In this document: in pieces, positions 5,596-61,758 of the stretch
How the letters are laid out: each line of letters opens with the position of its first letter
Numbering within the stretch: position 1 is the first letter of the stretch
NCBI GenBank assembly: GCA_041651055.1
Contig: JBAZJW010000003.1
Coordinates: 18,089 to 82,088, forward strand
Length of the DNA stretch: 64,000 nucleotides
Direction of reading: 5' to 3'
DNA from: Minisyncoccota bacterium
GTDB taxonomy: Bacteria > Patescibacteriota > Minisyncoccia > Phycocordibacterales > UBA5272
Notes under the pieces: generated by a model
What the model saw: only the letters and a program-made list of their open reading frames with translations
Database searches by the model: none
Told to the model about the DNA's origin: nothing
Translations under genes and position numbers: made by a program

Positions 5596-5614
5596 ATAAG
5601 AAGAGAGGAATAGA

Positions 5615-12807: not shown

Positions 12808-12813
12808 TTTGAA

Positions 12814-13650: not shown

Positions 13651-13652
13651 TC

Positions 13653-14258
13653 TTATTCCTCAGATTCATCCAGTTGCTCTTCCGCTTTATTATTTGAAAA
13701 GAAGTCAGCTTCTTCCATTGCTTTCCTAATAGCAGAAGGTTCCTTGTTATCAGTATCGTCAATTATTTGATTTGTGAACTCTAGTATCTGTTCTTCCTTT
13801 GATTTAAGGAGCTTATTCTGACAGTTTTCTATTGCTTTCTTGAAGTATTCTTCCTCCGCATGTTCTGCCTCATTCCTTGCAGCCCTTAGAGATATGATCA
13901 AATTGGTTGTTTCCCTCTCTATCTCACGATATTCCTTCTTTAAGCTTGTTGAGTTGTTCTTTATCGATATTAATTTAGAGATGGCTGAGTCTATCTTATC
14001 TAATGACTCATCATTATATGTTATCTTTTTCCTCATTGACGAAGCATAGTCAATGAATTCTGACTGTATTACCTTCTTCCTGAACTCCATAGCCTTTGAG
14101 ATATCTCCATTGAATAAACGCACCGCGTTTTCTTCAAGGACCATTGACACAATCTCTCCTTTGTTCGGCAATTGGTTCAATGCTTCTATCATTTGTTGTG
14201 GTAGACTTATACTTGTCCCAATTCTCCTCATAGCTTCGTCTTTAACTATTTTCGGCAT
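13653..14258 (-). CDS. coiled-coil protein
   Basis: heptad-rich charged sequence; possible recombination partner of the adjacent nuclease. Confidence 0.4.
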   Translation of the reverse strand: MPKIVKDEAMRRIGTSISLPQQMIEALNQLPNKGEIVSMVLEENAVRLFNGDISKAMEFRKKVIQSEFIDYASSMRKKITYNDESLDKIDSAISKLISIKNNSTSLKKEYREIERETTNLIISLRAARNEAEHAEEEYFKKAIENCQNKLLKSKEEQILEFTNQIIDDTDNKEPSAIRKAMEEADFFSNNKAEEQLDESEE

Positions 14259-20058: not shown

Positions 20059-21819
20059 TTACTCTTTAATTAGATTGAAGAAGGTTTGGGGGAGTAGGGA
20101 TAAGTGGGATATTATCTTGAAGTTCCTGCGTTGAGGACCGAGGATGTCGTTGTAGTCCTTGATAACTCTCTCTCTCATTGAAGCGTCTGATTGAATGTAA
20201 GCAATTCCATAGATTGAGATGCCTGAGCGGTGAGCTATCTTGGATTGCTCAATGGCTTCCTGCTTGTCTGATGCTATGCCGTCAGAAATGAAGAGGATGC
20301 GTTTTATGTTATTGGCTTTGCATCTTGTAATGGCAGTCCCAAGGGCTCGTCCAAGAGGGGTGAGTTTGTCAGCGTCAAAGCCTCCAAGCAAGGCACGGGT
20401 TTGGTCTGTGAATCGTTCTGTTCGTTCCTTTACCATGCGGATCTGATCCTTGTGTCCAAAGTATAGCATCTCGTATTTAATCTTGGTTGTGGTGAGGGCT
20501 TCACATATTATTGCTAGTGACATTATGTATTGGTTCTCGTATTGGGAGACGCTTCCTGAGTTGTCCACTAATATGTATAAGTCGGTTTTGTTTGAGATGC
20601 GTTCTTCATTGTTGAAGTATTTGTCGGAGCAGGAGATGTAGGCTTCAGGGTCGAAGTCTTCTCCTTCAGTGTCTAAGTGCTCATCCCAGCCAATGGTCCA
20701 CTTCTTGAGACGCTGCTTCATGTCAAGGGTTTCGCGTTGGACTGCTCCCTTCAATGTGTTGTATCTGCCGATGTCTGAGGAATTGGAGCGGATTATTGGT
20801 GTCTTGGCTATCTTCATCTGTTGTGTGTATTGGTCGCATAGTGATTTGAATTCTACCTTGAGTTCTTCTGTTGGGGAGGTTTCATCGGAGTCTATTTGTT
20901 GCAGGATCTTTTCGACTGCTTCAAGGCTTCCTCTTATTGATGCTTCGGATGTTTGTATCTTTTGTCCAGGAGTTGTGTTAGTATCAAGTTCTCCAGGTGC
21001 TTGGATATAGACCATGTTCAAGCCTTGGGAGTTTGGGTCGAGTTCTTGAGAGGTTGATCCATTCTCTTTCCTTTCATTGTATTGGTCTCTGAAATCGGGT
21101 TCATCTGGGAATAGTTTGGAGAACTTGAATGTGGACTCTATTGCTTGGTCTGTGGTCTCGATGTCTTGGAATTCAGGTATCAATGCTTTTAGTTGTGTTA
21201 GGAGTTCAGGTGAGAGTTTTTCATACATTGGGTTGGTGTCTCTTTCAGTGTCTTTGGATATGGAGCGGAGAGAGTCGAGGATGTAGAGTCCTGCGATTCT
21301 AACAGTTGAGAGAGAGTGCTTTAATCTTGTGTATTCCTTTGCGTTCTTCTTCAAGTAGTATTGGTCTCTGAAGCGTTGTTCTCTGTAGTAGCCTGTGTAA
21401 GTGCGAAGACTGATTTTTTCTATGCGGTAATCTTCTAAGGCATTGAATAATTGGAAGATGAATTTGTCTTTGGCGTGTTCTTTTGGCAGTATGTCAGGGT
21501 TTATGTGGGGTGTGTGCCAGATGTGGAGTGATTCATGGAAAGTCTCAAAGCGGAAGAGTCTCCATATATTGAAGTCTTGGGTTAGATCGCCTGAAAACAT
21601 TGGGAGTTGAGGAATGAGAATTGTGCCTCTGCTGTCTTTAGTAATTAGTGTGGAGAATCCTTTGTTTGTGAGTGAGGTGATTATATGAGTATTCTTGCAT
21701 TTGGACCATACACGAGCCAAATGATTCAAGTGATCTACTCTTACATCATTGGTATAAGTGGTTTGAATAGATTGCTGTTGAGACATATTATCAATGTCGT
21801 CTGGAGTTGGTTGTTTCAT
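20059..21819 (-). CDS. von Willebrand factor A (vWA) domain protein, CoxE/NorD-like
   Basis: C-terminal MIDAS: LYILVDNSGSV (DxSxS)...TPLGRAL...ILFISDG; long N-terminal extension. Confidence 0.6.
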   Translation of the reverse strand: MKQPTPDDIDNMSQQQSIQTTYTNDVRVDHLNHLARVWSKCKNTHIITSLTNKGFSTLITKDSRGTILIPQLPMFSGDLTQDFNIWRLFRFETFHESLHIWHTPHINPDILPKEHAKDKFIFQLFNALEDYRIEKISLRTYTGYYREQRFRDQYYLKKNAKEYTRLKHSLSTVRIAGLYILDSLRSISKDTERDTNPMYEKLSPELLTQLKALIPEFQDIETTDQAIESTFKFSKLFPDEPDFRDQYNERKENGSTSQELDPNSQGLNMVYIQAPGELDTNTTPGQKIQTSEASIRGSLEAVEKILQQIDSDETSPTEELKVEFKSLCDQYTQQMKIAKTPIIRSNSSDIGRYNTLKGAVQRETLDMKQRLKKWTIGWDEHLDTEGEDFDPEAYISCSDKYFNNEERISNKTDLYILVDNSGSVSQYENQYIMSLAIICEALTTTKIKYEMLYFGHKDQIRMVKERTERFTDQTRALLGGFDADKLTPLGRALGTAITRCKANNIKRILFISDGIASDKQEAIEQSKIAHRSGISIYGIAYIQSDASMRERVIKDYNDILGPQRRNFKIISHLSLLPQTFFNLIKE

Positions 21820-22866: not shown

Positions 22867-23886
22867 TTAGATTGTAATGTCGTCCGCTTTAACTTTTTGC
22901 TCTTCATAGCAGCCAAGGGAATGTGCAAGCGTTTTAAGGTTATCCATGTGGAAGGTTCCCCATTGTCTCATAGCATTAATCAATGTAAGATCAATGGTTT
23001 CGGTCAATGAGTAGCCGCTGTTTAGTAGGTGGGCTGCTGTGATTGATTCTCTTGTGGTGGGGCGGTATGGGTATTCGTCTGTGCTTCTAATGTTCTCGAA
23101 TAGCTTCAATACCTTAAGCAAGTCATCGCGGTGTTGTGATTCTAGTGTCAGCTTTCTTTCGACTATTTTGAGTTCGGTGAAGGCTGGGGGATAGTTGTAG
23201 ACTAGGCGTGCTGAGAATCGTGAGAGTATTTGTTGGGGTAGTTCCTTTGCTCCAGGGCAGTCAAGGGGATTGATTGAGGCGGTGAAAAACCAGGAGGGTT
23301 TAGCGTGTATTGTTAGTCCTTCATAGTTGAGTTCTCGTCTGTCGTCTAGGCATTCATTTAAGCGGATTAGGACATCTGGCTCGGATTGATTGATTTCATC
23401 TAGCATTAAGATTGAGCCTTCTTCCATTGAGAGGGGGAGTGGTCCTTTTTTCCAGTTGATGTTTCCGTCCTGTAAATCCAAGCGTCCAAGTAAATGCTGT
23501 TCTCTGCAGCGTAGTGAGAGGTTTAGTGAGTGTATGTTTTGGTTGTATTTTTCTGCCATTAGTAGAATAGAGATCGTCTTGCCACAACCAGGGGGGCCAA
23601 TGAGTAGGGGGTTGATTCCTTTTTCATACAAGTGGCATAGTTTTCTGAAATTGCCTTCCCAGTCGTAGAATTTGCCTCCGCTTAGGTCTTTGAGTATCCA
23701 GATTGCTCCAGAACGTATTATGATATCCTTCTGTTTTAGTGAGTCTAGTGCAGGGTAGATGTTTTGTATGGTGAGCGGTTCTGGGAGATTTAGGGGTTTG
23801 CTCCATTCTATGAGTTCTGTGGGTGAGCCTTTCTTGTGTTGGTCCAGTATTGATACCAGTATTCCTTCTATTTGTGCTTTATCCAT
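22867..23886 (-). CDS. MoxR-like (AAA_5) AAA+ ATPase
   Basis: Walker A LLIGPPGCGKT, Walker B ILMLDEINQ, sensor ..FFTASINP; partner of the downstream vWA protein. Confidence 0.6.
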   Translation of the reverse strand: MDKAQIEGILVSILDQHKKGSPTELIEWSKPLNLPEPLTIQNIYPALDSLKQKDIIIRSGAIWILKDLSGGKFYDWEGNFRKLCHLYEKGINPLLIGPPGCGKTISILLMAEKYNQNIHSLNLSLRCREQHLLGRLDLQDGNINWKKGPLPLSMEEGSILMLDEINQSEPDVLIRLNECLDDRRELNYEGLTIHAKPSWFFTASINPLDCPGAKELPQQILSRFSARLVYNYPPAFTELKIVERKLTLESQHRDDLLKVLKLFENIRSTDEYPYRPTTRESITAAHLLNSGYSLTETIDLTLINAMRQWGTFHMDNLKTLAHSLGCYEEQKVKADDITI

Positions 23887-25640: not shown

Positions 25641-25745
25641 TCCCCATGTTGGGAATCGAACCCACACCCCAGGGTAATATTACCTCCCCAAAGGCTCCAT
25701 TCCAGGACTAGGGGATTTCGATCCATTTATGCTAGCTCGGCTTTG
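25641..25745 (-). tRNA. tRNA-like element (possible intron-containing tRNA or tRNA 3' fragment)
   Basis: - strand reads GTGGG-TTCGATT-CCCAA (canonical T-arm) followed by CATGGGG-A acceptor 3' strand (plus 25641-25665); no clean 5' acceptor partner found by eye; internal perfect palindrome GGTAATATTACC (25672-25683). Confidence 0.3.
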
Positions 25746-25873
25746 GCTTCCATTATATCTCGTTCTTCTATCTTTTTGCCTAGCAATTCCTTCGCTTTTT
25801 TAATTGCCTCTTGCTCGCTCTCTGCCTCAACCGTAGGGCAGACCGTTATATAAACATTGTAGTCCATTTTGAA

Positions 25874-26041
25874 TCTTATTAAGTGTTATATCCGCAGTCA
25901 TAGCATACAAGATCTTTATATTCTCCTTCCATAGTACATACATCGGTGTTCTGAGAACCGCATCTAGGGCATTTATCGCCCTTCCTTTGCTTCTGCTCAG
26001 CCGTTGAATCTGGATAGGTTTTATAACAATGCTTTTTGTTC
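25874..26041 (-). CDS. small zinc-ribbon protein (~55 aa; coordinates approximate)
   Basis: MMNKKHCYKTYPDS...KCPRCGSQNTDVC...CYDCGYNT; preceded by variant linker; below 60-aa ORF track cutoff. Confidence 0.3.
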
Positions 26042-26056
26042 ATCATTCATCCCCTC

Positions 26057-26263
26057 CTAATGGTTTATTGCTTGGGTTAGGTCTTGTTCTGAAATTATAT
26101 TTCCTTTATCATCGCTAACTACAAGAAAAACCGCTTTTATCGTTTTAAGATACTCACAGGTTAAAGTTCCTTCTACACAGAACTTATACCAAAACTCAGC
26201 CTCAGTTGCCTTCAACATTGATATTTTCCCATCTTTATAATTAATTCTCAGTTTTACAGTCAT
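26057..26263 (-). CDS. hypothetical small protein
   Basis: linker-preceded ORF. Confidence 0.4.
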   Translation of the reverse strand: MTVKLRINYKDGKISMLKATEAEFWYKFCVEGTLTCEYLKTIKAVFLVVSDDKGNIISEQDLTQAINH

Positions 26264-26266
26264 CGT

Positions 26267-26635
26267 TCATTCCCTCCTTTTAATCTCTGTCTCTTTCGAT
26301 TTTTCTTCTATTGGCTTATAATCCGGGCAATCCGACATCTCGCCATAACAATAGAAAAAGCATTGTTCTTGTATTTCACTACTTGGATTATGACACCAAT
26401 CGCCATGTAAAAACTTGCAGTCGGGACAGATACATGCAAGAGTGCCCTTTTCAATAACTCCCACCCCCTTCAAACGAGCAATCTCCTGGTCCTTCTCTTT
26501 GTGGTCTGGAAAGTAATGGTCCTCAACGCAGGACATACAACAAAAAACATACTCGTCCCCATCCGCTTCTATCACTCTGATTGCATCAAAAGAGCTAAAC
26601 ACGCCCTTGCAAGCCTCACAACCAAGTTTAGTCAT
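26267..26635 (-). CDS. Cys-rich zinc-binding protein
   Basis: CEACKG...CCMSC...CICPDCKF; ends ..EIKRRE* inside linker. Confidence 0.45.
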   Translation of the reverse strand: MTKLGCEACKGVFSSFDAIRVIEADGDEYVFCCMSCVEDHYFPDHKEKDQEIARLKGVGVIEKGTLACICPDCKFLHGDWCHNPSSEIQEQCFFYCYGEMSDCPDYKPIEEKSKETEIKRRE

Positions 26636-26638
26636 CGT

Positions 26639-26845
26639 TCATTCCCTCCTTTTTTCTCTGTCTCTTTCGATTATTTTTTTTGTTTTGTCAAGGAAAACCT
26701 CGAGAGCCGCATCCTTGACCTTCTGGTACTCAGCCAATGCCGGAGCCTCGACCTTCTGGTACTCAGCCCAGAAAACTAATACCTCTTTCTCGTTCCTCTT
26801 GATCGCATTAAGATTTTCCTTAGAAAAAACCATATTATAGCTCAT
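26639..26845 (-). CDS. hypothetical small protein with internal tandem duplication
   Basis: AEYQKVEAPALAEYQKVKDAAL from a ~30-nt tandem duplication (26715-26775); ends ..EKRRE* inside linker. Confidence 0.45.
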   Translation of the reverse strand: MSYNMVFSKENLNAIKRNEKEVLVFWAEYQKVEAPALAEYQKVKDAALEVFLDKTKKIIERDREKRRE

Positions 26846-26869
26846 CGTTCATTCCCTCCTTTTAACTGT

Positions 26870-27025
26870 TTCTAATGATTTATTCTCGTAGCCCTGCGCA
26901 CGTTTCAGAATGGCTTTATATTCCTTGTCTGTATACTGCCGTCCGCATCTGGGGCATTCTCCGATCCGGGGGTCGAAGTCGCTTTCTTCAAGCAAAACCT
27001 TACACCTTGTGCAATATGCGTCCAT
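26870..27025 (-). CDS. small zinc-ribbon protein (51 aa)
   Basis: MDAYCTRCKV...ECPRCGRQY...; stop codon TAG at 26870-72; start ATG overlaps stop of upstream gene (TAATG); below ORF-track cutoff. Confidence 0.4.
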
Positions 27026-27351
27026 TATCCTTTATGACCCTCTGTCTCTTTCGATTCTTTCCATTTTAACCCGGCACAGCTAATAATGTCCTTTGCCTGA
27101 ATCAAGTCATGATATAGCCGTGCGTTCTCGGCTTTCAGTTCCGCTATTTCTCCCTTCATCCTTGCAGCTTCAATATAACATGAATCCGCTTTAAGGCTCA
27201 TAATCTCCTGGTCCTTCTTCTTTAGTTCATTTAGAAGGCGTAAACAATCTTTATGGTCCAGTTCTAGTCCTCGGTGATTTAGCGTTCCCTCATAAAGTAA
27301 TTGCTTCCACTCATCCCAATTCTGAGAATTCAAAACTTGTGTTTTGTCCAT
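27025..27351 (-). CDS. coiled-coil protein
   Basis: heptad repeats; C-terminus ..KESKETEGHKG encoded by linker core. Confidence 0.4.
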   Translation of the reverse strand: MDKTQVLNSQNWDEWKQLLYEGTLNHRGLELDHKDCLRLLNELKKKDQEIMSLKADSCYIEAARMKGEIAELKAENARLYHDLIQAKDIISCAGLKWKESKETEGHKG

Positions 27352-27352
27352 G

Positions 27353-27559
27353 TTACTGTTTACCCTCTGTCTCTTTGGGATGGTATTTTCCTGAAACTTC
27401 TATATCCTCTCCTGATAGTCCGTTTGAATCTATCTCAATCTTATAGCGGGCAATTCTTCCAGAGTATAGTTCCATCGTTCCTGAAATTTCGGTCGCCCCA
27501 TCTCGTAGCATTTCCATCACCGCTTCCCCAATCTTGCCCGTCGTGCTAATTGCGCTCAT
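27353..27559 (-). CDS. hypothetical small protein, first gene of linker array
   Basis: preceded by SD-ATG half of linker; ends ..KETEGKQ. Confidence 0.4.
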   Translation of the reverse strand: MSAISTTGKIGEAVMEMLRDGATEISGTMELYSGRIARYKIEIDSNGLSGEDIEVSGKYHPKETEGKQ

Positions 27560-35918: not shown

Positions 35919-36419
35919 AATATTAGATTTAGAAACTAAAGTATAAATAGATAAGCAGTATTTATAGTTGAAAGAGTATGATAATATTAGAGGAATCCTG
36001 CAAAGCCTCGTGTCGGTTATAACATTGGTAGGTTATAAAATTGGGTCACTGGCTAGTTCCTTGTGTTCATCTAGTCCAGTGATCCTCATATTAGAATCAA
36101 GCATATATAAAATCAATCATATCTGTTTGTTTTTTCAATAAGGGATTCAAGCCTTAGAAGTTTGAAATCAATAGTCCTCTGGATATCTTTGAATACGTTG
36201 CGATCTGGATTGATAGCGCATAATATCGTGGTGCTGATTCACGAAATGCACGAACTAGGGATAAAGCCAGATTTTAAAAATATATCATTATAATGTACTA
36301 TTTTTTATAAAAACATATTGATTTATTAACCCTTGTGTGCTATAATATATTTGTTTGATACCCGCTATCGTTACTGTAACAGTGATGATAGGCTTAGATT
36401 ACCGTTACATCTGTATATA

Positions 36420-36752
36420 ATGGCTTCTAGTGACAAAGTTGCTATATTTATTGATTCGGGCTATTTTAACAAAGCCTTAGAGGAATTTGCCGAAGAGGTA
36501 AATGGTAGGAGGAAGTTACCTAGGATAGATTTTGGTAAAATCGGATCTGTCTTAGCAGAAATAGTAAACGCTGATTTATTTAGGGTATATTTTTATGATT
36601 GCCGCCCATTTCAAAGCAGCCCGCCAACACCCGAAGAAAGCACTAAATTTGCTTTAAATGACCGATTTCTCAAAGCACTAACTCGTATTCCTCGTTTTGT
36701 TGTTCGTGAAGGAAGACTTAATCGTTATACCGTAGTATGCAAGAAATGTAAT
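36420..36752 (+). pseudogene. N-terminal half of a LabA/NYN-domain gene, interrupted at ~36751
   Basis: KVAIFIDSGYF (NYN kvavfiDgeN), FRVYFYDC, RFVVREGRL; homology stops where GC-rich DNA begins. Confidence 0.55.
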
Positions 36753-37036
36753 AGGGCAGGGTGCCGGTTGTCTTCGGGTATAATATTTACTGCATGCTGG
36801 GCCGTAAGACCGGGAAGTTGCTTGCCCATAATGGGTTGTATGTTAAGAGTTTAAGCGTCGGATGGGCCGAATTAAAGAGGGATTTCTCCGGGTACGCAGT
36901 CAACGGGACTGCCTTGAATGCATCGCTGGATACGGGTAAGTCTTCCGTACAATAGAAGTTTTTGTGGGTATTCGTCCTCAGGCAGTTATAGTCGAGGGCA
37001 AAAGTTGTCCACAGACATGCCCTTAAGGGCAACTAG
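36751..37036 (+). ncRNA. RNase P RNA-like fragment lacking the 5' ~70 nt (P1-P4 5' strand)
   Basis: AUAGGGCAGGGUGCC (15/15 identical to the E. coli M1 RNA P5/P5.1 region), then GGCCGUAAGACCGGG, CUGCCUUGAAUGCAUCGCUGG, and UGUCCACAGACAUGCCCUUAAGG resembling the M1 RNA P4 3' strand UGUCCACGACAGAACCCGGCUUA, in the canonical order; followed by an oligo-T at 37039-37045. Confidence 0.45.
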
Positions 37037-37781
37037 CCTTTTTTTAAAAATCAGATTACGTGCCCTCGAATAGATTCGCGGCCGATAGCAGTCTAAATGC
37101 ATTTAAGGCATTTGCCTTTTTGCACAATTTATGGCCACGATTATGTCCAAATCAGCGTTTTTAAGCTCTTTTGTATCATTATCCGGTTTGCCTTAGGCTG
37201 TGGGTTCTTTCCGCCTTGCAGCAGCCGAGGTCATATTATAGTGCAGGAGATAACTTTCCTGCGCCCGTCGAGCGCATGCCTGTCAGGCGGAAAATTTGTG
37301 CCTAGAGGCACATGCCCCTTGAGGGCAAAGTCCCTTTATCTCCCTGCACTTGTTTCAAGGGCCAAAATCTTAGGGGTATTCTGGTCCTCGACTATAGTTC
37401 TTCAGGTCTTTTGCCTGCCTATTTTACAACAGTTTTCCGGCATTTAGGGATTGAATAATCGTGGAGGGATAACTTTTCCCTCCTTAAGGCATTCCCTGCG
37501 AGCATCCCGAGTTTTTCGTGAAAGACCTTTGTTCTCCCGCGCTGGTTTCCAGTAGGCGGACTTGCCTGGAAGGCGTTCCTCTTTAAAGGCGCGAAAATTT
37601 AATCCTTGACTAAGTGTTTTCCCTGTCTGCTCGGGGTCTGCTTCGAACACTTTTTTTCTATGCCGATGAGCCGCATATTTTCCAGGGAACCTACAGAAAA
37701 AAATTTGTTAGACGCAACATATCTTTTATTATAAATATATTCCAGTAAACATGATATAAGGACATAGTCTTATATAGTAAC

Positions 37782-38228
37782 GTGACATTACTTTATTTTG
37801 CCTATGGCGCGAATATGAACCACAAGCACATGAAAGACGCGTGCTCTCAGAGCAGGTTCTTGAAGAGGGCTTTTCTGGAGGATCATAAGATAATATACGA
37901 CGGGTACTCGGATTACATGAGAAGAAGAGCAAGGGCCAATGTCATCAGCTCTGAGGGCAGTGTCGTGTGGGGCGGCCTGTATGAGATAAGCGAGACGGAC
38001 CTTGTATCGCTGGACGTATCGGAGTACGCGCCTAACTCATTCGACCGGAAGACAACCGTCGTCAAAGACGAGGACGGGAAGACATATGAGGTCATCGTCT
38101 ACCGCAGGGAAAAAAGGGAGTTGTGCGCGCCTTCTACGGAGTACAGGCAGACCATAATACAGGGAGCAAAAGACTGCAACCTCCCCCAGGGATATATAAG
38201 GGGGATAAGTTATAGAGTAAGCGGATGA
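37782..38228 (+). CDS. gamma-glutamyl cyclotransferase-like (AIG2/GGCT family) protein
   Basis: N-terminal LYFAYGANMN matches the YFAYGSNM family signature; upstream TATA-like TTTATTATAAATATATT at ~37725. Confidence 0.55.
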   Translation: MTLLYFAYGANMNHKHMKDACSQSRFLKRAFLEDHKIIYDGYSDYMRRRARANVISSEGSVVWGGLYEISETDLVSLDVSEYAPNSFDRKTTVVKDEDGKTYEVIVYRREKRELCAPSTEYRQTIIQGAKDCNLPQGYIRGISYRVSG

Positions 38229-38242
38229 TTATCAAAATCTGA

Positions 38243-38680
38243 TTACATGTATTTAGACTGGCTTTTAGTCTCCCGGGCAGTTGGCTCTTCCTCTGCAGGC
38301 ACCGGTTCTTCTACCTGGACATCATCGGCCGGTTCGTCTACAGGGTCGTCTTCCAGGTATTCATCCAGCCGGTAGAGCCAGCAGCATTTGCCGCATTCAA
38401 GTTCCAGTTCTCCCGCGCAGTTGCCGTTTGTCCCTTCCTGCATCACTATTTCCCCGTCTCTCACATATGCTGTTATCTTGTTCTGGCATTCGGGGTTCTC
38501 ACAGGTGAAAGACACTTTTTCCGCCTCGCACACAAGTTCCGGTTTATAGACCATGTTCTCATCCTCCGATAGATCTTCGTTTAGTATCGCTCTTTCTGCG
38601 CTCGTGTAGCTTCCATATCTCAAGACAAGATATAGAAGGTACGCAACGCCAACCAGGAAAAATAAGCTTCCCAAGTCCAT
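38243..38680 (-). CDS. hypothetical membrane-anchored acidic protein with Cys pairs
   Basis: N-terminal TM helix, CEAE...CENPEC...CAGELELECGKCC. Confidence 0.4.
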   Translation of the reverse strand: MDLGSLFFLVGVAYLLYLVLRYGSYTSAERAILNEDLSEDENMVYKPELVCEAEKVSFTCENPECQNKITAYVRDGEIVMQEGTNGNCAGELELECGKCCWLYRLDEYLEDDPVDEPADDVQVEEPVPAEEEPTARETKSQSKYM

Positions 38681-38684
38681 TAAA

Positions 38685-40061
38685 TCATTCCTTCTTCTTT
38701 GTTTCGTGCTTTATCTCGTGCCTGCGCGTTATGGGCTCTACTCCGACAGCTTCGAATATCTTCGGCAGAGCCGCTGTTCCCTGCATCACGGTATTCAGGA
38801 TGGATCCGCCAAGTCCCATGTCTGACGTATCCCCTGTCTGGACTATCGTTATCTTGTCTCCGATGTTCTTCAGGGGCTCTGCTATTCTCTCGGCTATCAA
38901 AGGAAGCGTCTCTATCTTCATTATCTCAAGGCCGCTCTGGTTCAATTCCTTGTATGCTTCCGCCTTCTTCTGGACTCCTTCCGCTTCGGCTAGAAGCTTT
39001 TGTTTCTGTCCCTCCGCTTCGGCCAGTAATTTTGCCTTTATTGCTTCCGCTTCCCCGATCCCTTCCAGCTTCTTCTTCTCGGACTCTCCCGCCGCAATAG
39101 CGATCGTCTTGACTTTCTCGGCCTCTCCTTCAAGCTGCTGTATTTCCTTGTTTCGTTCGGATATCTCTACTTGTTTCTGCTTCTGTATTAGTTCGATCTT
39201 CATCTGCTCTTCTTTCAGTTTCTGTGTTTGTATGGCAGTCTCTATATCCTTTGCCTTGTCGGCCATGGCCTGCTGCGTGAATGTCTCCTGGTTGTATAGC
39301 GCCATCTTTATCTGTTTTTCTTTTTCGTATTCTGCTATCTTTGTCTGCGCTATGTTCTCCTGCTCGCTTGCTTCCTGGTTCGCCTTGGCGGTCGCCTTCC
39401 GGGACTCGCTCTTCGCGTTGGCTTCGGCTATCTCCGCTGCTTTTATCTTTTCGGCAAGCTCCTTTGCGTAGAGGGACTCTATGTACCCTCTGCCGGTCTC
39501 TTTCTTTGTTGACGATGAATCGCTGATGTCCTTTATCGTGAAGGATACTATCGAGAGGCCCATCTTCTCCAGGTCGTCTTTTGCGTTCTCAAGGACCCTT
39601 TTGTTGAAGCTTTCCCGGTCCTGTATCAATTCCTCGACTGTCATGTTGGCGCATATCGCCCTTATGTGGCCCTCCATTGTCTCTTCTATCTTCTGCATTA
39701 TCCTTTCGGTCTCAAAGCCCAGGAATGATTTTGATACGTTGGCGTATCCTTCTTCGGTGTCCTGCAACTGTAATTGTGCGACTGCTTCCACGTCGACGGG
39801 AACGATAAGCTGAGTCTGCACGTTTTCCTTTACTATTGTGACGGTCATAAGCTGTTTTGTTATGGACCACGCTTCTTCCAGGACAGGGAATATGAGCGTT
39901 GCTCCTCCCGACACGAATCTTGTTCCTTTCCTTCCGGAGATCACCATAAGCTTTGACGGGGGTACTTTGATATAGTTCCTGCTCATAACATACGCTCCCC
40001 CCATGACCGCTATTGCTCCCCCGCCGACTATTATCGGCAGCACGAATCCGTCGATGTTCAT
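38685..40061 (-). CDS. flotillin / SPFH (band 7) domain protein
   Basis: N-terminal TM segment, SPFH core (VISGRKGTRFVSGGATLIFPVLE...TVEELIQDRESFNKRV...GLSIVSFTIKDISD) and long Ala/Glu-rich coiled coil (AEAEGQKQKLLAEAEG). Confidence 0.7.
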   Translation of the reverse strand: MNIDGFVLPIIVGGGAIAVMGGAYVMSRNYIKVPPSKLMVISGRKGTRFVSGGATLIFPVLEEAWSITKQLMTVTIVKENVQTQLIVPVDVEAVAQLQLQDTEEGYANVSKSFLGFETERIMQKIEETMEGHIRAICANMTVEELIQDRESFNKRVLENAKDDLEKMGLSIVSFTIKDISDSSSTKKETGRGYIESLYAKELAEKIKAAEIAEANAKSESRKATAKANQEASEQENIAQTKIAEYEKEKQIKMALYNQETFTQQAMADKAKDIETAIQTQKLKEEQMKIELIQKQKQVEISERNKEIQQLEGEAEKVKTIAIAAGESEKKKLEGIGEAEAIKAKLLAEAEGQKQKLLAEAEGVQKKAEAYKELNQSGLEIMKIETLPLIAERIAEPLKNIGDKITIVQTGDTSDMGLGGSILNTVMQGTAALPKIFEAVGVEPITRRHEIKHETKKKE

Positions 40062-40639
40062 TTTTCAGCCTCTCTTGATGCTTTTTTTACTTTCAACATG
40101 TCGCCGCATAGTCCGGCGACTATTACATTCGTTCCCTTGGGCAGGCTTTCGTCCGAGACCGCCAGTAAAGACTTATGGCTCCCGTCTACGAAAAGAACTT
40201 CCCCCTTGTCGCCCGCGCCCTTTATCTCCACTGTCACTACGCCCTCTTTTCCTATGAAATCCCTCAGCTTGCGTATAGAGCTTGGCGAATTGGAGAACAC
40301 CTTGGACATTAGATACGTTGATGAGACGGTTATCGCTAAAGAGATAAAAAGCGACGCAGGAACCAGGACAAAAGGACTCATTTCAGGATACGCGAGCAGG
40401 AGATATACCCCGGCCCCTCCGAAAGTCGTGCAGAACGCGCCCATCGCGAATGTGCCAAAGCCGTGGAAAGACACTCCGTCGAATGCATCCCCCAGGAGGG
40501 ATATGCCATCCAACGCGTTGCCCACGCCTTCCAATACCCCTTCCAGGGCGTCGCCTAATATGTCGGCAAAGAAGCTGACAACTGTGATCAATAGCCCCAT
40601 CAAGAATATTATTCCGAAAACTAGTAGAATATCTATCAT
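40058..40639 (-). CDS. NfeD-like membrane protein (YuaF/YqiJ type), operon partner of flotillin
   Basis: multi-TM N-terminus plus C-terminal OB-like beta domain GKEGVVTVEIKGAGDKGEVLFVDGSHKSLLAVSDESLPKGTNVIVAGL; 4-nt overlap with flotillin gene. Confidence 0.6.
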   Translation of the reverse strand: MIDILLVFGIIFLMGLLITVVSFFADILGDALEGVLEGVGNALDGISLLGDAFDGVSFHGFGTFAMGAFCTTFGGAGVYLLLAYPEMSPFVLVPASLFISLAITVSSTYLMSKVFSNSPSSIRKLRDFIGKEGVVTVEIKGAGDKGEVLFVDGSHKSLLAVSDESLPKGTNVIVAGLCGDMLKVKKASREAEK

Positions 40640-40796
40640 TTTTATTGAATAATATTTAGATTATGTTATATTTATATAAATATTCTGTATAAAACTTTGA
40701 TTCTTTCCTGAATTTGTAGATTTGTGGGAAGTGAGCGAATGTAGTGCCTAACTTTCCGGACCAAAAAAAATATTTAAATAATCAGAAAACACATAC

Positions 40797-41309
40797 ATGT
40801 ATGTGATGAAAGCCAGCAAACATCGCATGCTTTCTTTTATGATGGTCGCCGCGTCTACCGCTGCCGGCGCGAACTCCGTAATGGGCCCTCTGACAGGCAT
40901 TTGGGGAGTGGCAATGATATTCTTATTCCTCCCGGTATGGCTTCTTGAGGCCGTAATCATTTACTTCGCAGCAAGGAAGATATGTTCCTACAGTATAAGC
41001 CTCAAGCGCGCATTTATCACGTCTTTTGCAGCCAACACCGCCTCGACAATAGGCGGCCTTATGGCAATGCAAATTTGCTACTTTATTACCTTCCTACTGT
41101 TCCATAACTATACCCTGAGCATATTTTACGAGATCGTCCCCGTCTTTGCCCTGGGTTTTGTGATAACGGTCATCATAGAAACGGTCGTGGTGCATATCTC
41201 AGTCAAGGATAAAGGCAGAGGCTGCAAGCCTTTTTATATTTCCATGCTGATGAATCTGGCGTCATATGCCCTGCTTGCAGCGCTTGCAGTCATCAGATAC
41301 AGTCGTTGA
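40797..41309 (+). CDS. integral membrane protein (4-5 TM helices)
   Basis: hydrophobic segments throughout; GC-rich codon usage like neighbours. Confidence 0.4.
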   Translation: MYVMKASKHRMLSFMMVAASTAAGANSVMGPLTGIWGVAMIFLFLPVWLLEAVIIYFAARKICSYSISLKRAFITSFAANTASTIGGLMAMQICYFITFLLFHNYTLSIFYEIVPVFALGFVITVIIETVVVHISVKDKGRGCKPFYISMLMNLASYALLAALAVIRYSR

Positions 41310-41634
41310 CGTTCTTAAGCCACATTAGCAGCGTCGACTGAACCGTTCCGGATGCCTCGGCGCTTATCCTCTCCGCGTCGTATCCGAACGTTATTAGCAG
41401 GTTCTCGAGAGCCCGGACCAATAGTTCGTAGTACTTGTCCGGATCGTATTCCCCCCGTATCTGCTTCGGCGTGTAGCGCCGCTCGGGCTTCTTCGCGCAG
41501 GCATCTGTTATCACGTACTCGACCGATTCCCCCGGCCGGGTCTTCAGACCGTAGCGTTCCAGCTTTTCCATCACGACCTTTTGCGCCGCCGCGCTCTTGT
41601 ATTCATTCCGCTCCCTTGTCACGCTCTTGAACAT
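41293..41634 (-). pseudogene. C-terminal (thumb-tip) fragment of a family-B DNA polymerase gene, truncated at the block boundary
   Basis: RERNEYKSAAAQKVVMEKLERYG...EYDPDKYYELLVRALENLLITFGYDAERI parallels archaeal PolB C-termini (..[24 protein letters not shown]...[29 protein letters not shown]); in-frame stop 12 codons upstream of the ATG in low-GC DNA. Confidence 0.5.
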
Positions 41635-41913
41635 ACAATTGACTACAAGCAGAAAGGCGTAGATATACTACTATCTATGGATTTAGTAAAGTTGGTTTCT
41701 AAGGAAGAAATAAACAAAGCAGTACTAATAACTGGTGACAGTGACTTTGTGCCTGCGGTTCGAATGGCAAAGGATGATACGATCCAAATTTATTTGATAC
41801 ATGGTACTAGAATCCATAATGGAAAAACTCTTCCACTAGCTCATGATGAACTTTATTCGTTATGTGACGAACGCATACCTATAACAAAGGAGCTACTTAA
41901 AAGGCTGACCTAA
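41634..41913 (+). pseudogene. C-terminal half of the LabA/NYN-domain gene
   Basis: KQKGVDILLSMDL...AVLITGDSDFVPAVRMAKDDTIQIYLI matches NYN gk.dvDialavDa...vvLvSgDsDFaplv...G..V.v. Confidence 0.55.
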
Positions 41914-49919: not shown

Positions 49920-50316
49920 TTGGTTTATCGTATTTCAATAAGAGTTCACATAGGTCGGCTTTAAATAAGTGTTCATCAGAGGGTGAGAGCTTGATTCCAA
50001 GGTCCGTATAAAGCAGTAGAGTGATGGAGGTTGAGAGTTTGAGGAGGGAGTCATAGGGTGTAGCTGGAGGGGTTGTGGTTTGGTGGGTCAGGATGACTGC
50101 ATAGGACTCTATCTTAGACAGTGTGTTGCGTTCTTTCTCCATTAGGAACCAGGTGTTCAACATGCGAAGGGAGTCGAATTGAAGCAATCGCTTGGAGAAA
50201 TGGATGTCAAAGTCCTTATTAGACATAAGGCGTTCAGATGTTGGGGAAATCATTGTAATCAGGTGAAGTCTCTGAGTTCGTCTTTGTTCATTGGTCGGGA
50301 GGCTCCACATATACAC
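49903..50316 (-). CDS. hypothetical protein
   Basis: ORF in array. Confidence 0.3.
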   Translation of the reverse strand: MYMWSLPTNEQRRTQRLHLITMISPTSERLMSNKDFDIHFSKRLLQFDSLRMLNTWFLMEKERNTLSKIESYAVILTHQTTTPPATPYDSLLKLSTSITLLLYTDLGIKLSPSDEHLFKADLCELLLKYDKPNENID

Positions 50317-51386
50317 GAGACAGTCATATCTACCATGTCGTAACAGCAGTAGTCGTGTTTCTTACAGGTTTTCTCCTCAGTGGATTTTTTCTTTGAGGAA
50401 TTTAGTTCTGAATCCTTTGAGAAAGTCCTGAACCAGGACTCCTTTTCCTTAGCGACTTGGACTAGTTTGGCGGCTTCCTTCTTGATTGCTTTGATTATGC
50501 GGTTTGGAATTTTTCGTCCAAGATACTCATAGATAAAGATTTCCTGATCCCTGGTCTCAATGGCCTCCTTACAATAATGCTTTCTAACATAGTCGATTGG
50601 GTCTGTTTTCTTGGAGAGGTGGAGACCGCACCATATTGCTAGGACGGTTCCAGTGCGGCCGTGAGCTCCTTCACATGTGACCAATACTTTTCCAGTGGTG
50701 GTTCTCTCTTTTAAGTAGTCAATGATCACATCCATTTGTTCTTTGGTTGGGGGAGTGCGGTCCATGACATCAACGATTAATGGAGAGAAGTAGCGGGTGT
50801 CAAAGATGGGGTATTCTCTGAGGGTGTGGTTGTCAGTCATAACCCAACCTGAGAATTCCTTCAAGCGATCATAAGGTATTGTGTAGGACATCAGGCGGAC
50901 TGGTTGTAGATTGAATAGCTTGGGGTGGCTGTGTTCAATGGTGTGGGAGCAAGTATCAAAGTTGTAATAAGTGTTTGAGTGGATACAAGCTGAGCCTTTG
51001 GTGTAGAGGCCGCCGCTCAATGTGGTTTGACCTCTCATCATAGCTTCCTCTTGTTCGAGCTTGTATTCTTCAAACATGTCGCGTTCTTCTTCTGATGAGG
51101 CGCATTGAGTTAGGTAGCCTTCACATGCCAAGACAATGCGCTCATAATCTTCTTCAGAGTGACATTCAAGAGCGCAATCACATCCAATGCAGTCTACAGG
51201 TGAGCCGCATATGTCAATGTCTGATATCATAGTAGAATCTACAAGTGGAAGGATACCATAATCCTTTGACTCCTTTTCGCTCACATCGTGGTCTGAGAAT
51301 AAGGAGACAATGGCTTGGTTCTCATTGATGTCATCTGAGAAGTCTTCATTTGAGTTACGTCTGCTTGTGTGTTTGTTTCGTCCCAT
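50259..51386 (-). CDS. protein-tyrosine / dual-specificity phosphatase-like protein with Cys-rich N-terminal half
   Basis: GKVLVTCEGAHGRTGTVLAIW matches the Cys-X5-Arg P-loop (h-C-x2-G-x2-R-[ST]-G) of PTP/DSP enzymes. Confidence 0.5.
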   Translation of the reverse strand: MGRNKHTSRRNSNEDFSDDINENQAIVSLFSDHDVSEKESKDYGILPLVDSTMISDIDICGSPVDCIGCDCALECHSEEDYERIVLACEGYLTQCASSEEERDMFEEYKLEQEEAMMRGQTTLSGGLYTKGSACIHSNTYYNFDTCSHTIEHSHPKLFNLQPVRLMSYTIPYDRLKEFSGWVMTDNHTLREYPIFDTRYFSPLIVDVMDRTPPTKEQMDVIIDYLKERTTTGKVLVTCEGAHGRTGTVLAIWCGLHLSKKTDPIDYVRKHYCKEAIETRDQEIFIYEYLGRKIPNRIIKAIKKEAAKLVQVAKEKESWFRTFSKDSELNSSKKKSTEEKTCKKHDYCCYDMVDMTVSCICGASRPMNKDELRDFT

Positions 51387-57792: not shown

Positions 57793-58180
57793 CACAATGC
57801 TCACCAACATAAGAACCCAAATTAAAACAAACCCAGCAGAACCCAATCTCATCTTTGATCCTATAACACTAATGACTCTACACTTATTATCAATAAACAA
57901 AACCAAATATTGCATCCATCAATCACAATGCTAACAAACATAGACCTACAAATCAAAACAAGCCTCACAACCTCAAACCACATCATTGATCCAATAACAT
58001 CAAAGACCCCACACCATCTCCAAATAGATAAACCCAAATACAATTACCACCCACAATGCTAACCAATATCGACTTACAGATCAAGACCGGACTAACAACC
58101 TCAGACTTCATAATAAAAGGAGCCACAGACTTCAAATACTGGGCCGAAACCCTATACGACTACACAATCAAACCATACCA
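57793..58180 (+). repeat. three diverged tandem ~130-bp copies of the terL 5' end (CACAATGCT.AC.AA.AT...)
   Basis: unit starts at 57793, 57924, 58052 (ATGs at 57797, 57928, 58056; not in frame with one another). Copies 1-2 encode MLTNIRTQIKTNPAEP.. and MLTNIDLQIKTSLTTS.. versus the real MLTNIDLQIKTGLTTS.. Confidence 0.65.
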
Positions 58181-59600
58181 CATCGAATGGGCCAACAACC
58201 TAACACAACAAACACGCTCCTCAACCATCGCAGCAAGAGGACTAGGCAAATCACTCATACTAGGAACCCTAATGCCCATCTGGCTAAGCTTCTACGACTA
58301 CACACCACAGACAACAAACCTAAAAGGAATAGTAATAGCAGCCCAAAACCTAAGCCAAAGCACTAAACTAATGATGAACATCCGAAACCACATCAACAAA
58401 ACAGAACTAACACAACTACTCATACCAAAAACAGGAGACTACACCTGGACCAAAAAAGAAATAAACACCACAACCGACTGGAAAATAAACGTACTACCAT
58501 ACAGCGACAACGCAAGAGGACCACACGTCCCATACCTCCTAATGGAAGAAGCAGGTCTATTCACCGACCTAGAAATATACACAGACGTATTCCTACCAAT
58601 GATCCAAAGAGCCAACGGCAACGCAATGTTATTAGGGACCCCAAAAACAGCATACGACCTGCTAGCAAGAAGCCAAATACCCGGAAGCGGATACCAGATA
58701 AGCAAATACCCCCTAATCAAAAACGGAGAATGCATCCTACCAGAAATATTCCCCCCAGAACGAATACAACAAATACGAAAAGACATCGGAGAACTAAGCT
58801 TCGCAAGAGAATACCTACTCGAAATAGTAGGAGAAGGACGAGCAATAAAAACACAACACATAATAGACAGCCTAGACCCAACAGAAACCTTCACCACACT
58901 AGGAACCGAAACAGGAGAATACTACATAGGAGCAGACCTAGCACTATCCCCCACAGGAGACTACACAGTACTAACAGTCATAGAACGCTACAATGGACGC
59001 TACCACATCCGCAAAATAGAAGAATACCGCGGCATGAGCTTCGACAACCAAATAAACACCATAGCCACCCTATACAAACAATACAACCCCGTCACCCTAC
59101 TAATAGACGAAAGCAACTTCGGAGGAATAGTAACCCAAAAACTACAAACACAATACAACATACCAGCCCAAAGCATCAAATTCCTCCCAACCACCCGCAA
59201 CACCATGCTCATAAGACTAATAAACACCTTCACATCAAACAAAATAACCATACCACGAAACCCCAACTGCCCCACCACCCTCACACTAACAGACCACCTA
59301 CTAGACCAAATAAGCAGCCTACACAGCGACAAAACACGCAGCGGCCAAGACACCTACAAAGCATCAACAAAACACGATGATTCTTTAATGTCCCTAGCAC
59401 TAGCCCTACACGCAGCAGGAGACACAGACAACTACCAAGAAACAGCCATACTAACAGCCAAACCACCAACAAACCAAACACAACAAAACAAGATAATACA
59501 AGACAACTACTATGAAACAATACAAAAAATGAGACAAAAACCAATAAAAGAAACCAAAGAATACGGATCAGCCTTCAACAAATGGCTACCACACAACTAA
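58056..59600 (+). CDS. terL: terminase large subunit
   Basis: Walker A AARGLGKSLILG, Walker B-like VPYLLMEEAG, C-terminal RNase H-like nuclease Asp motifs YYIGADLALSPTGDYTVLTVIE and LLIDESNFGG; strongly A/C-rich codon usage. Confidence 0.65.
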   Translation: MLTNIDLQIKTGLTTSDFIIKGATDFKYWAETLYDYTIKPYHIEWANNLTQQTRSSTIAARGLGKSLILGTLMPIWLSFYDYTPQTTNLKGIVIAAQNLSQSTKLMMNIRNHINKTELTQLLIPKTGDYTWTKKEINTTTDWKINVLPYSDNARGPHVPYLLMEEAGLFTDLEIYTDVFLPMIQRANGNAMLLGTPKTAYDLLARSQIPGSGYQISKYPLIKNGECILPEIFPPERIQQIRKDIGELSFAREYLLEIVGEGRAIKTQHIIDSLDPTETFTTLGTETGEYYIGADLALSPTGDYTVLTVIERYNGRYHIRKIEEYRGMSFDNQINTIATLYKQYNPVTLLIDESNFGGIVTQKLQTQYNIPAQSIKFLPTTRNTMLIRLINTFTSNKITIPRNPNCPTTLTLTDHLLDQISSLHSDKTRSGQDTYKASTKHDDSLMSLALALHAAGDTDNYQETAILTAKPPTNQTQQNKIIQDNYYETIQKMRQKPIKETKEYGSAFNKWLPHN

Positions 59601-60325: not shown

Positions 60326-61744
60326 ATGACAACACCAAATCAAAAAACAAAAACCCAAAGAAGATCACAACCAATATCAACACACACACAAAACATACAA
60401 AACACCGGATTCCAAGGAATAATACCCACACTGCAAAAATTCATGTACGGAGAACAAAAAACAGACAACACCCCCGAACCGGAAATAGGAAACAAAGGAT
60501 ACAGCACCGGACTAACACTAAACAGGGCAAGCAAAGCAGACCTGGAAGCACTATACATAAGCGACCCAGTAATATTCAACGGAATAAACACCTACTACAA
60601 AACAATCCTCTCAAACCCCCCAACCCTGACAAACGGATCGGAAAAAGACCAAAAAAAACTAGACCAATTCAGCAAACAAATAAAACTACAAAGAAGCATA
60701 ATACCAAGCATAACCCAACACAGCCTCATATACGGAACCGCGTGGAATGAAAAAATCTACAACAAAGCCCCCAGAGGAAACATCCTACACAAAATACTCG
60801 GAATACCCACAAGAGACCCCAAACTAATGGACTTCCTAAGACACCAAAACACCAACTACATAAGATTCAACGAAGTAGGAGAACCGGAAGGATACTGCCA
60901 ATACATAGCTGACGGAATACACTACGAAGGAACCGACACCATAATAAACGGAACAAACAGCCTAAAAGCCATACCCTTCACCCCAAACAAAATAATGTGG
61001 ACCAACTACATAGCAGTAGGAGACACCTATGAAGGAATAGGCCTGGTCGAACCAATACTAAACAGCTCACTAGACAAAAACAACGCCCAAAAAGGATTCA
61101 GCGCATACATCTACCGACTAGGACACGGACTACTAGGCATCAAAGCAGGAAACGAAAGATTCATACCCTCAACCGACATGATACACAAAGCCATACAGAT
61201 CTTCAGCAACATAAACACCGAAACAGTAGTCTCCTACCCCTACTACCTACAACCCGAAATGATCGAACCCAAAAGAGGAATAGAACGACTAAGAGAACAA
61301 GTAGACTACTTCATAGACCAACAAATAGCCGGAATCGGTTTGCCAGCATGCTTAGTAACAGGCCAAGGAACTTCTATGAACCGCAGCATCCTGGACAAAA
61401 TGATGATGCTATTCTACCAAAGCCTCACCATGATCCAAAACAACATATCTATAAGCATAGAAGACAACCTATCCCAAGAACTAATGGACATATACGGACT
61501 AGACAACCCCCCAAGACTAGAATGGCCCGACATAAACATAGAAAGCATGGACAGCAAAGCAAACAGGCTAAGCACATACGCAAAAGCAGGCCTGCTAGGA
61601 GCCACCCCAATGCTGCAGACATACATACGACACTCAGAACACCTACCCCAAGAAGGAGACAACACGCCCAACACGCCAGACACCCAATCAAACGAAGACC
61701 AGGAGAACCACAAATCAAAGCTGGATTCAATCCTCGACTTCTAA
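60326..61744 (+). CDS. putative portal protein (472 aa)
   Basis: size and position immediately after terL in a co-oriented packaging block; no motif verified. Confidence 0.35.
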   Translation: MTTPNQKTKTQRRSQPISTHTQNIQNTGFQGIIPTLQKFMYGEQKTDNTPEPEIGNKGYSTGLTLNRASKADLEALYISDPVIFNGINTYYKTILSNPPTLTNGSEKDQKKLDQFSKQIKLQRSIIPSITQHSLIYGTAWNEKIYNKAPRGNILHKILGIPTRDPKLMDFLRHQNTNYIRFNEVGEPEGYCQYIADGIHYEGTDTIINGTNSLKAIPFTPNKIMWTNYIAVGDTYEGIGLVEPILNSSLDKNNAQKGFSAYIYRLGHGLLGIKAGNERFIPSTDMIHKAIQIFSNINTETVVSYPYYLQPEMIEPKRGIERLREQVDYFIDQQIAGIGLPACLVTGQGTSMNRSILDKMMMLFYQSLTMIQNNISISIEDNLSQELMDIYGLDNPPRLEWPDINIESMDSKANRLSTYAKAGLLGATPMLQTYIRHSEHLPQEGDNTPNTPDTQSNEDQENHKSKLDSILDF

Positions 61745-61758
61745 ACCACATAAAAAAG

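Follow-up and report, generated by a model that had tools for sequence, protein, structure and literature searches.

A block of archaeal-type cellular DNA, probably captured by a tailed virus, in its NYN/LabA gene

The capture of host genes by viruses is a known process, and the block of 4,882 bp described here is best seen as a well-preserved recent example of this process, not a new kind of system. The block occupies positions 36753-41634 of the window, that is, of the whole stretch of 64,000 nucleotides that was analysed (contig JBAZJW010000003.1, positions 18,089 to 82,088), which is part of a tailed-virus genome of about 85 kb, and it splits the gene of an NYN/LabA-type nuclease. It is most probable (with a probability of roughly 0.78) that this virus took about 4.88 kb of cellular DNA, in all likelihood archaeal, by non-homologous recombination into its own NYN gene.

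Several described systems are close to this locus. Phage morons, auxiliary genes and mosaic junctions are similar when considering the foreign composition of the insert, the lack of a recombinase signature, the presence of its own upstream regions and the location in a non-essential region. Classical morons, however, are whole genes placed between other genes, whereas the present block lies inside a gene, includes two truncated bystander genes and has an archaeal-type donor. Specialised transduction through aberrant excision of a prophage, as known for the gal and bio genes with phage lambda, also concerns a contiguous piece of the cellular chromosome with arbitrary end points, but there the DNA adjacent to the att site is taken and viral DNA is replaced at the end of the genome, whereas the present block is internal, at the expense of at most about two viral codons, and no integrase or att site is found. 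The likeness extends to the 'filler' DNA of end-joining at double-strand breaks, where an unrelated linear fragment is also inserted without homology or duplication and with essentially no loss of the target; the capture of filler DNA is known mainly from eukaryotes and from a few bacteria.

The genes of the block also have described counterparts. The NfeD-flotillin operon is known in bacteria and archaea, for example as yuaF-floT of Bacillus subtilis, and in a similar way the flotillin gene of the block, which codes for SPFH and Flot domains, is directly preceded and slightly overlapped by a putative NfeD-like gene. The difference is that here the pair is virus-borne and accompanied by a 145-residue Cys-rich protein and a GGACT-like enzyme, as in the donor-type loci described below. 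The polymerase gene at the right border may be related to the archaeal PolB2 operon. PolB2 is a mainly archaeal translesion polymerase, and the sequence IVD in the place of the catalytic DxD motif is its hallmark (PMC11791011, PMC8764526). The relatives of the border polymerase resemble PolB2 in their size (about 724 residues), in having IVD for DxD, in their matches to the models of short archaeal PolB proteins and in the small RecA/RadA-like open reading frame (ORF) that precedes them; unlike in such an operon, the window holds only the last ~105 codons of the gene, and the PolB2 membership is putative, as judged from the relatives.

The interrupted NYN/LabA gene and the composition of the block

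The N-terminal half of the NYN/LabA gene (111 codons) is found at 36420-36752 and the C-terminal half (92 codons and the stop codon) at 41635-41913, both on the plus strand, as identified from the in-frame join, the Pfam NYN match and the alignment to intact homologues. The reading frame of the N-terminal half currently continues for 34 codons into the block, up to a stop codon at 36852-36854. The length of the block is of the form 3n+1, and the two pieces are therefore in phase once the block is removed. When position 36752 is joined to position 41635, a protein of 203 residues is obtained, which has one Pfam NYN match (PF01936, residues 6-167, E = 1.1e-10) and which, when compared with the intact archaeal homologue P0002 (201 residues), shows 59% sequence identity over 99% of the length. 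More than 100 further homologues of the joined protein are found, each of them in a single piece.

In a multiple alignment with 10 homologues, all uninterrupted, the two halves are complementary and do not overlap. The break directly follows a CxxC motif and falls in a loop that differs in length between family members; at this point the joined protein is about two residues shorter than P0002. The joined protein shares 29 invariant columns with the 10 homologues, including Asp12, Asp121, Asp127 and the DSDFVP motif, and all family-invariant residues are preserved in the split gene. Judging from these alignments, the two pieces are one recently interrupted gene and not two paralogues. Among the PADLOC models, that of the candidate defence system HEC-09 (E = 1e-10) is matched by the joined protein in addition to the NYN model. 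The destroyed gene may have had a role in defence or counter-defence.

The composition of the block is clearly different from that of its surroundings, with a GC content of 48.2%, compared with 37.9% in the rest of the window. In ten successive 1-kb windows over the block, the GC content is 2-3.4 standard deviations above the viral mean. The tetranucleotide usage of the block has a correlation of 0.42 with that of the virus, of 0.79 with that of the non-homologous part of the donor-type contig L016 and of 0.76 with that of the archaeal chromosomal contig L009. The nucleotide alignments place the left breakpoint at 36750-36758 and the right breakpoint at 41628-41636. Together, the shift in GC content and tetranucleotide usage, the collinear homology to the loci of four other contigs (L015, L016, L017 and L020) and the junction alignments identify 36753-41634 as inserted archaeal-type cellular DNA. 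These data are in agreement with the original prediction, in which a GC-richer block of about 4.9 kb had been recognized between the two pieces of a single LabA/NYN-like gene: the GC profile and the tetranucleotide usage bear out the block, the single domain, the complementary halves and the intact homologue bear out the split gene, and joining the halves restores the full-length NYN reading frame, as had been proposed as a check.

Donor-type loci and the gene content of the block

The block is collinear with a locus that is found on four independent metagenomic contigs from different samples, the four named above. The gene order of these donor-type loci is a small RecA-like ORF, PolB (724 residues), a variable gene, NfeD, flotillin and the 145-residue Cys-rich protein, then GGACT on the opposite strand, followed by a gene of the sce7726 family ('P4 cII-like'), a 75-residue Cys-rich protein, a rhodanese (178 residues), a response regulator/PAS protein and a PAS histidine kinase. 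At the variable position, L015 has a gene for a secreted protein of 592 residues and L016 has other genes. Three segments of the block match these loci at the DNA level: 37675-40686 is 80-82% identical to L015, L016 and L017, 41365-41628 is 73-75% identical to the 3' end of the PolB genes in the donor-type contigs, and 36788-36912 is 74% identical to the rhodanese gene of L016 and L017. All three segments preserve the order and orientation of the donor-type loci. The fourth locus, on the short contig L020 from another metagenome, was found with the alignment of the 145-residue protein and repeats the part of the locus with the 145-residue, GGACT and sce7726-like genes.

Full-length PolB is encoded in L015, L016 and one contig that was read from its genes only, and full-length rhodanese in L016 and L017. 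The donor-type contigs have a GC content of 48-51%, are at most 12.7 kb long and also carry response-regulator/PAS and histidine-kinase genes. The assignment to the sce7726 family is from the match of the L016 protein to NCBIfam NF033832. In L020, the sce7726-like gene is frameshifted, and an ORF similar to the TnpA of IS200/IS605-type elements (with the sequence …HVHMFV…) is present at 2583-2957, beyond a gene for a Cys-rich protein of 85 residues, where L016 has the rhodanese gene.

At the left border of the block there is a 5'-truncated rhodanese-domain gene (36755-36955, plus strand, stop codon at 36953-36955), as identified by tblastn and tblastx comparison with the L016 rhodanese. The fragment 36758-36916 is 75% identical to residues 107-159 of the 178-residue protein (tblastn, E = 3e-24), and the homology extends to residue ~170 in the tblastx comparison. 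The remaining stump has the last ~65 codons, including the sequence YCMLGRKTG, which resembles an active-site loop, and ~105 N-terminal codons are gone. The full-length L016 rhodanese matches PF00581 with its residues 58-146; the fragment of 66 residues in the window has no Pfam match by itself.

This segment had been taken for a ribonuclease P (RNase P) RNA that lacks its 5' part. No Rfam family reaches its gathering score in the whole window, and when 36400-38000 and 36700-37120 are scanned with lax filters, no RNase P RNA or other plausible family is found at E <= 10. The predicted fold of the left border is no better than that of shuffled sequences on either strand (z = -0.9 and -0.4). The RNase P reading is rejected because the protein-coding homology explains the segment, which corrects a tempting misannotation of the GC-rich left border.

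The right border lies in a 5'-truncated gene of a family-B DNA polymerase, probably of the PolB2 type (41293-41634, minus strand), with the family identified from NCBIfam NF004418 and from the C-termini of the L015 and L016 PolB proteins. The stump matches positions 616-715 of the 717 positions of NF004418 (E = 1.6e-8), and 41628-41320 is 75% identical to residues 620-722 of the 724-residue L015 protein; the identities with the L015 and L016 C-termini are in the range of 71-75%. The last ~105 codons, coding for the C-terminal thumb region, are preserved and ~618 N-terminal codons are gone, so that the polymerase in the window cannot be functional. The ATG at 41634-41632, at the right junction, is a coincidence. 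Apart from the stump itself, no homologue of the stump is found in an index of 5.8 billion proteins. Both borders thus interrupt ordinary protein-coding genes, of which the 3' parts are left.

The full-length PolB of L015 has the sequence HGIVDSL, with IVD for DxD, in a motif region that falls outside the fragment in the window. The donor-type PolB scores 430 and 354 bits with the models of short archaeal PolB proteins and at most 105 bits with the models of bacterial Pol II. It is from the IVD-for-DxD replacement in the relatives and from PMC11791011, and not from a phylogeny, that the border polymerase would be classified as PolB2-type. Directly upstream of the PolB2-type gene, an ORF of 141-144 residues that is similar to RecA/RadA is seen in L015 (90-524, 144 residues) and in a second contig. 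It has no recognizable Walker A motif and no family match, and may correspond to the short iRadA-like partner of PolB2 operons (PMC11791011).

Between the two stumps, four genes are full-length when compared with their orthologues. The GGACT/AIG2-like (gamma-glutamyl cyclotransferase-like) gene at 37782-38228, on the plus strand, for which the gene callers place the start at 37815, is identified by its Pfam matches (PF13772/PF06094) and by protein identities of 83-89% with L015 and L016. On the minus strand follow the gene of the cluster-specific 145-residue protein (38243-38680), the flotillin gene (38685-40061) and the NfeD-like gene (40058-40639). The 145-residue protein has full-length orthologues in L015 and L016 (65-67% identity). 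Its N-terminal part includes a hydrophobic segment, Cys-rich CxxC motifs are present, and it has no Pfam, NCBIfam or PADLOC match. The flotillin (458 residues) is recognized by PF01145 (E = 6e-20), PF15975 (E = 2e-10) and the FloT-like family of NCBIfam; it is 94% identical to P0123, and relatives of ~94% identity are present on contigs of other samples. The NfeD-like membrane protein (193 residues) is 81% identical to the NfeD proteins of L015 and L016, which carry the JGI name 'membrane protein implicated in regulation of membrane protease activity'; its match to the Pfam NfeD C-terminal domain (E = 5e-4) has 20.7 bits, compared with a gathering score of 29.1. The putative NfeD gene overlaps the start of the flotillin gene by 4 nucleotides, as would be expected for the canonical NfeD-flotillin pairing.

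The pairwise dN/dS ratios (nonsynonymous over synonymous substitution rates) of these four genes are 0.03-0.18, with 0.03-0.05 for flotillin. Since dS is saturated (0.8-2.3), this signal of purifying selection reflects mainly the cellular history of the genes and does not date the capture. The AT-rich stretches upstream of GGACT and NfeD are conserved in the donor-type loci and contain motifs similar to TATA boxes, and the flotillin-NfeD cluster therefore probably brought its expression signals along.

At the variable position between NfeD and PolB, the ORF list gives a predicted membrane protein of 170 residues (40797-41309, plus strand); it has no family matches in Pfam, NCBIfam or PADLOC and no relatives on metagenome contigs when searched with peptide patterns. 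None of the five proteins of the block matches a PADLOC defence model. Upstream of GGACT, short and degraded remnants of a sce7726-family gene may be present on the minus strand (37168-37436), as weakly indicated by two collinear tblastx pieces (37168-37212 and 37398-37436, matching L016 7208-7319) and by a 24-nucleotide match to L020; beyond these, the region 36956-37700 has no detectable homologue, family or RNA match. This non-coding left part of the block also contains two similar copies of ~60-70 nucleotides (~75% identity) at 36985-37060 and 37280-37355, each built around a GC hairpin (GCCCTTAAGGGC / GCCCCTTGAGGGC), after which comes a T-rich run. The copies are absent from the donor-type loci that were fetched, and may represent either terminators or a small repeat element.

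The interior of the block thus agrees with what had been read from the sequence before (GGCT-like, flotillin/SPFH, NfeD and a membrane protein), with the addition of the 145-residue protein. The right junction does fall inside an opposite-strand PolB C-terminal fragment, and both border genes are truncated, as had been predicted; the left one is a rhodanese gene instead of rnpB, and the polymerase is probably of the PolB2 translesion type instead of a core replicative housekeeping polymerase. Likewise, when considering the proposed synteny of rnpB, GGCT, flotillin, nfeD and polB, the order GGACT-flotillin-NfeD-PolB is found on independent contigs, with rhodanese in the place of rnpB.

Route of capture and alternative origins

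Neither inverted nor direct repeats are seen at the ends of the block, and the target is not duplicated. Neither transfer RNA nor transfer-messenger RNA genes are found in a scan of the window, and neither a recombinase, a transposase nor Cas1 is detected among the ORFs of the block with Pfam, NCBIfam and PADLOC. No integrase is found among the ORFs of the block or among the scanned viral ORFs of at least 150 residues in the window, which covers all but 21 kb of the contig. No group I or group II intron is matched by Rfam, and the block has genes on both strands as well as truncated genes. Because the hallmarks of transposons, integrases, tRNA sites and introns are absent, as is any homology between block and virus beyond the length expected by chance, the insertion is by exclusion considered to be non-homologous.

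In the proposed mechanism, a linear fragment of cellular DNA of about 4.88 kb, most probably archaeal, would have reached the viral genome and would have been joined to it by illegitimate recombination of the end-joining or microhomology type, either at a break or via paired crossovers. The site of insertion would be the viral NYN/LabA nuclease gene, which is evidently dispensable. The fragment would stem in one continuous piece from a conserved locus of the cell, with breaks at arbitrary points in the PolB and rhodanese genes. Breaks inside these two genes would leave both as 3' stumps only and the four middle genes whole, with their AT-rich upstream regions. We infer the mechanism of recombination, the direction from cell to virus, the recency of the event and the identity of the donor with the host of the virus. 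The direction is suggested by the genes that are truncated in the virus, because these are full-length in contigs of 48-51% GC with sensor and regulator genes, and the recency by the block itself, because it keeps a donor-like composition while the NYN halves are open, in phase and have intact invariant residues. One can speculate that the viral RecU-like resolvase, the Cas4-like PD-(D/E)XK nuclease and the ligase-domain protein took part in the insertion. The insert amounts to ~5.7% of the viral genome, and a gain of this size is usually tolerated by headful-type packaging. The original prediction of a random chromosomal chunk, picked up by illegitimate recombination in a transduction-like manner, is supported by the synteny and the truncated borders where capture is concerned; the term 'transduction-like' is loose, as the DNA is inside the viral genome and was not packaged in its place.

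Several observations weigh against this capture or limit its detail. No relative with an empty site was found, when searching viral contigs with a junction-spanning DNA pattern, IMG/VR with the joined NYN protein and with the terminase, and the flanking viral genes by exact look-ups; this virus alone was recovered. The support for the junctions comes from assembled contigs. The true donor was not found: the nearest relatives are ~80% identical in DNA, with saturated synonymous sites, and the search for a close donor in reference genomes with flotillin gave bacterial matches only, of 26-33% identity. The relatives of ~80% identity are too divergent to determine the exact breakpoints, any microhomology or the age of the event. 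For about 700 nucleotides (36956-37674) and for the region of the 170-residue ORF (40687-41292), the donor-type loci that were sampled offer no counterpart, and strict contiguity in the donor is therefore inferred. As for the host of the virus, the NCBI bin label of the contig is Paceibacterota, and the viral resolvase is weakly RecU-like.

It could be argued that the NYN pieces represent two distinct paralogues, or one gene that is split by nature, with the block as resident DNA between them. Nothing speaks for this apart from both pieces being open reading frames, and it is practically excluded, as the pieces complement each other within one domain and are in phase when joined, the block has a foreign composition and 10 out of 10 aligned homologues are single, uninterrupted proteins. 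An assembly chimera, in which archaeal reads were spliced into the viral contig by the assembler, had been named as the alternative from the start, and the metagenomic origin of the MEGAHIT contig, which is known from essentially one dataset, is in line with it. Such a chimera would, however, require two misjoins back to the same gene and in the same codon phase, with the loss of at most ~2 codons. The longest k-mer common to the block and the virus is 14 nucleotides, as expected by chance, whereas de Bruijn assemblers need at least 21. Moreover, the window and the corresponding ENA contig differ by three single-nucleotide polymorphisms (SNPs) elsewhere and are identical over the block and both junctions, and three to four long contigs from different sources have the same arrangement. 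When considering the k-mers, the phase and the agreement of the two assemblies, only a slight residual chance is left for a chimera.

It is also conceivable that the block is a mobile element or a part of it (a transposon, an integrative element or a casposon-like PolB element) that inserted itself. PolB genes do occur in self-synthesising elements, the related locus of L020 has an IS200-type TnpA beside the cluster, and a sce7726-family gene is present in the donor-type locus. This origin is nevertheless very improbable: both ends are truncated ordinary genes and not the termini of an element, the block has no inverted repeats, target duplication, recombinase, Cas1 or transposase, its PolB is a 3' stump only, and the relatives keep a stable gene order beside sensor-kinase and response-regulator genes. 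A two-step route, in which the fragment came from another virus or a plasmid already carrying the cellular locus and not directly from a chromosome, is unlikely, if less readily dismissed. The donor-type contigs are at most 12.7 kb long, so their replicon type is unproven, and flotillin-family genes occur sporadically in phages. Set against this, genes for two-component sensors are present on the donor-type contigs and viral hallmark genes are not, their GC content is 10 points above that of the virus, and their PolB2-type gene follows a small RecA/RadA-like ORF, much like in the PolB2 operons of cells (PMC11791011).

The viral genome and its host

The viral nature of the window is seen from the large terminase (58056-59600), the Mu-like portal (60326-61744) and the tail-associated proteins (16-7327); many small ORFs without known relatives are also present. 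An ORF of 1,859 residues (16-5595) has five Laminin_G_3 (concanavalin-like lectin) repeats and presumably acts as a tail fibre or adhesin. Next come the genes for a prophage-tail-like protein (5615-7327) and for a protease-like protein (7498-8808) that has a CarboxypepD_reg domain. A viral recombination module extends over 12319-14258, with a RecU-like Holliday-junction resolvase (12319-12807), a PD-(D/E)XK/Cas4-like nuclease (12814-13650) and an adjacent ORF of 201 residues without family matches. A VWA-domain protein (20059-21819) and an AAA_5 (MoxR/GvpN-like) ATPase (22867-23886) form a typical MoxR-VWA chaperone pairing, which is viral here. A protein of 375 residues at 50259-51386 has a DSP-PTPase 'Swiss Army Knife' phosphatase domain (PF22784/PF22785), and the local 1-kb window has a GC fraction of 0.45. 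The long ORF at 61348-63945 has an ATP-dependent DNA ligase domain and a C-terminal helix-turn-helix, and its exact product is absent from the gene collection; as listed, it overlaps the portal ORF by ~400 nucleotides, and its true start is therefore probably further downstream.

On the minus strand, small paralogous genes are arranged in a row at 25727-27559. Upstream of several of them lies nearly the same segment (…CGAAAGAGACAGAG…AAAAGGAGGGAATGAACG-ATG), which includes a strong Shine-Dalgarno motif, a feature that most other genes of the virus lack. The three SNPs between the window and the ENA contig (at 26736, 26749 and 26807) fall in this repeat family and may for that reason reflect strain variation or a collapse of repeats in the assembly.

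The window corresponds to the MEGAHIT contig k141_3129407 of the ENA assembly ERZ27247363. The NCBI copy of the viral genome (proteins MFA5132835.1 and MFA5132838.1, locus tag WC444_05955) sits in a bin named Candidatus Paceibacterota bacterium, and this label is likely to be a binning artefact; as the binning of viral contigs is unreliable, it is a hint only. The closest intact NYN gene is found on contigs with archaeal-type genes, such as those for FilR1/HVO_A0261-type regulators, KaiC-like ATPases, geranylgeranyl reductase and DUF7343. Among the called viral genes, a Shine-Dalgarno-like motif precedes 14 of 61 (genes in the region 25.7-53 kb), and most leaders are A-rich and end in …AAA-ATG; in the archaeal contig L009, such a motif is seen for 3 of the 27 genes, and in the donor-type loci its use is low as well. 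TATA-like boxes are present 25-45 nucleotides upstream of the first genes (25-35 nucleotides in the virus) in the virus, the donor-type loci and the archaeal contig alike, and neither sigma-70 promoters nor hairpin terminators are enriched at the viral genes. The viral large terminase is ~24% identical to those of Bacteroides phages. The type of PolB, the kinship of the NYN gene and the style of expression, none of which is decisive, favour an archaeal host related to the donor, which is suggested by these sequence features.

Paceibacteria are documented episymbionts and parasites of methanogenic archaea (PMC9600506, PMC9763046, PMC10936435). With the bin label and the RecU-like gene, it could therefore be imagined that the virus infects a Paceibacterota host, and that the archaeal DNA came via the close contact of this host with an archaeon and the scavenging of DNA from it. 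If true, this would be a route of cross-domain gene flow caught in the act, but it is quite improbable, as the closest relative of the NYN gene is archaeal and as the style with few Shine-Dalgarno motifs and with TATA boxes is common to the virus and the archaeal contigs.

Most of the host-derived genes of viruses are seen late, when superfluous parts have been lost and the base composition has moved towards that of the virus. The block described here is the raw product, an arbitrary slice of a locus with two dead stumps, a broken viral gene and an intact flotillin-NfeD membrane-scaffold cluster, from which the virus could gain an auxiliary function. If the host is an archaeon, which seems most likely, this is a concrete case in which a tailed virus of archaea has captured DNA by a non-homologous route, and it would be an entry point to ask whether a virus-borne flotillin alters the membranes of the host during infection.

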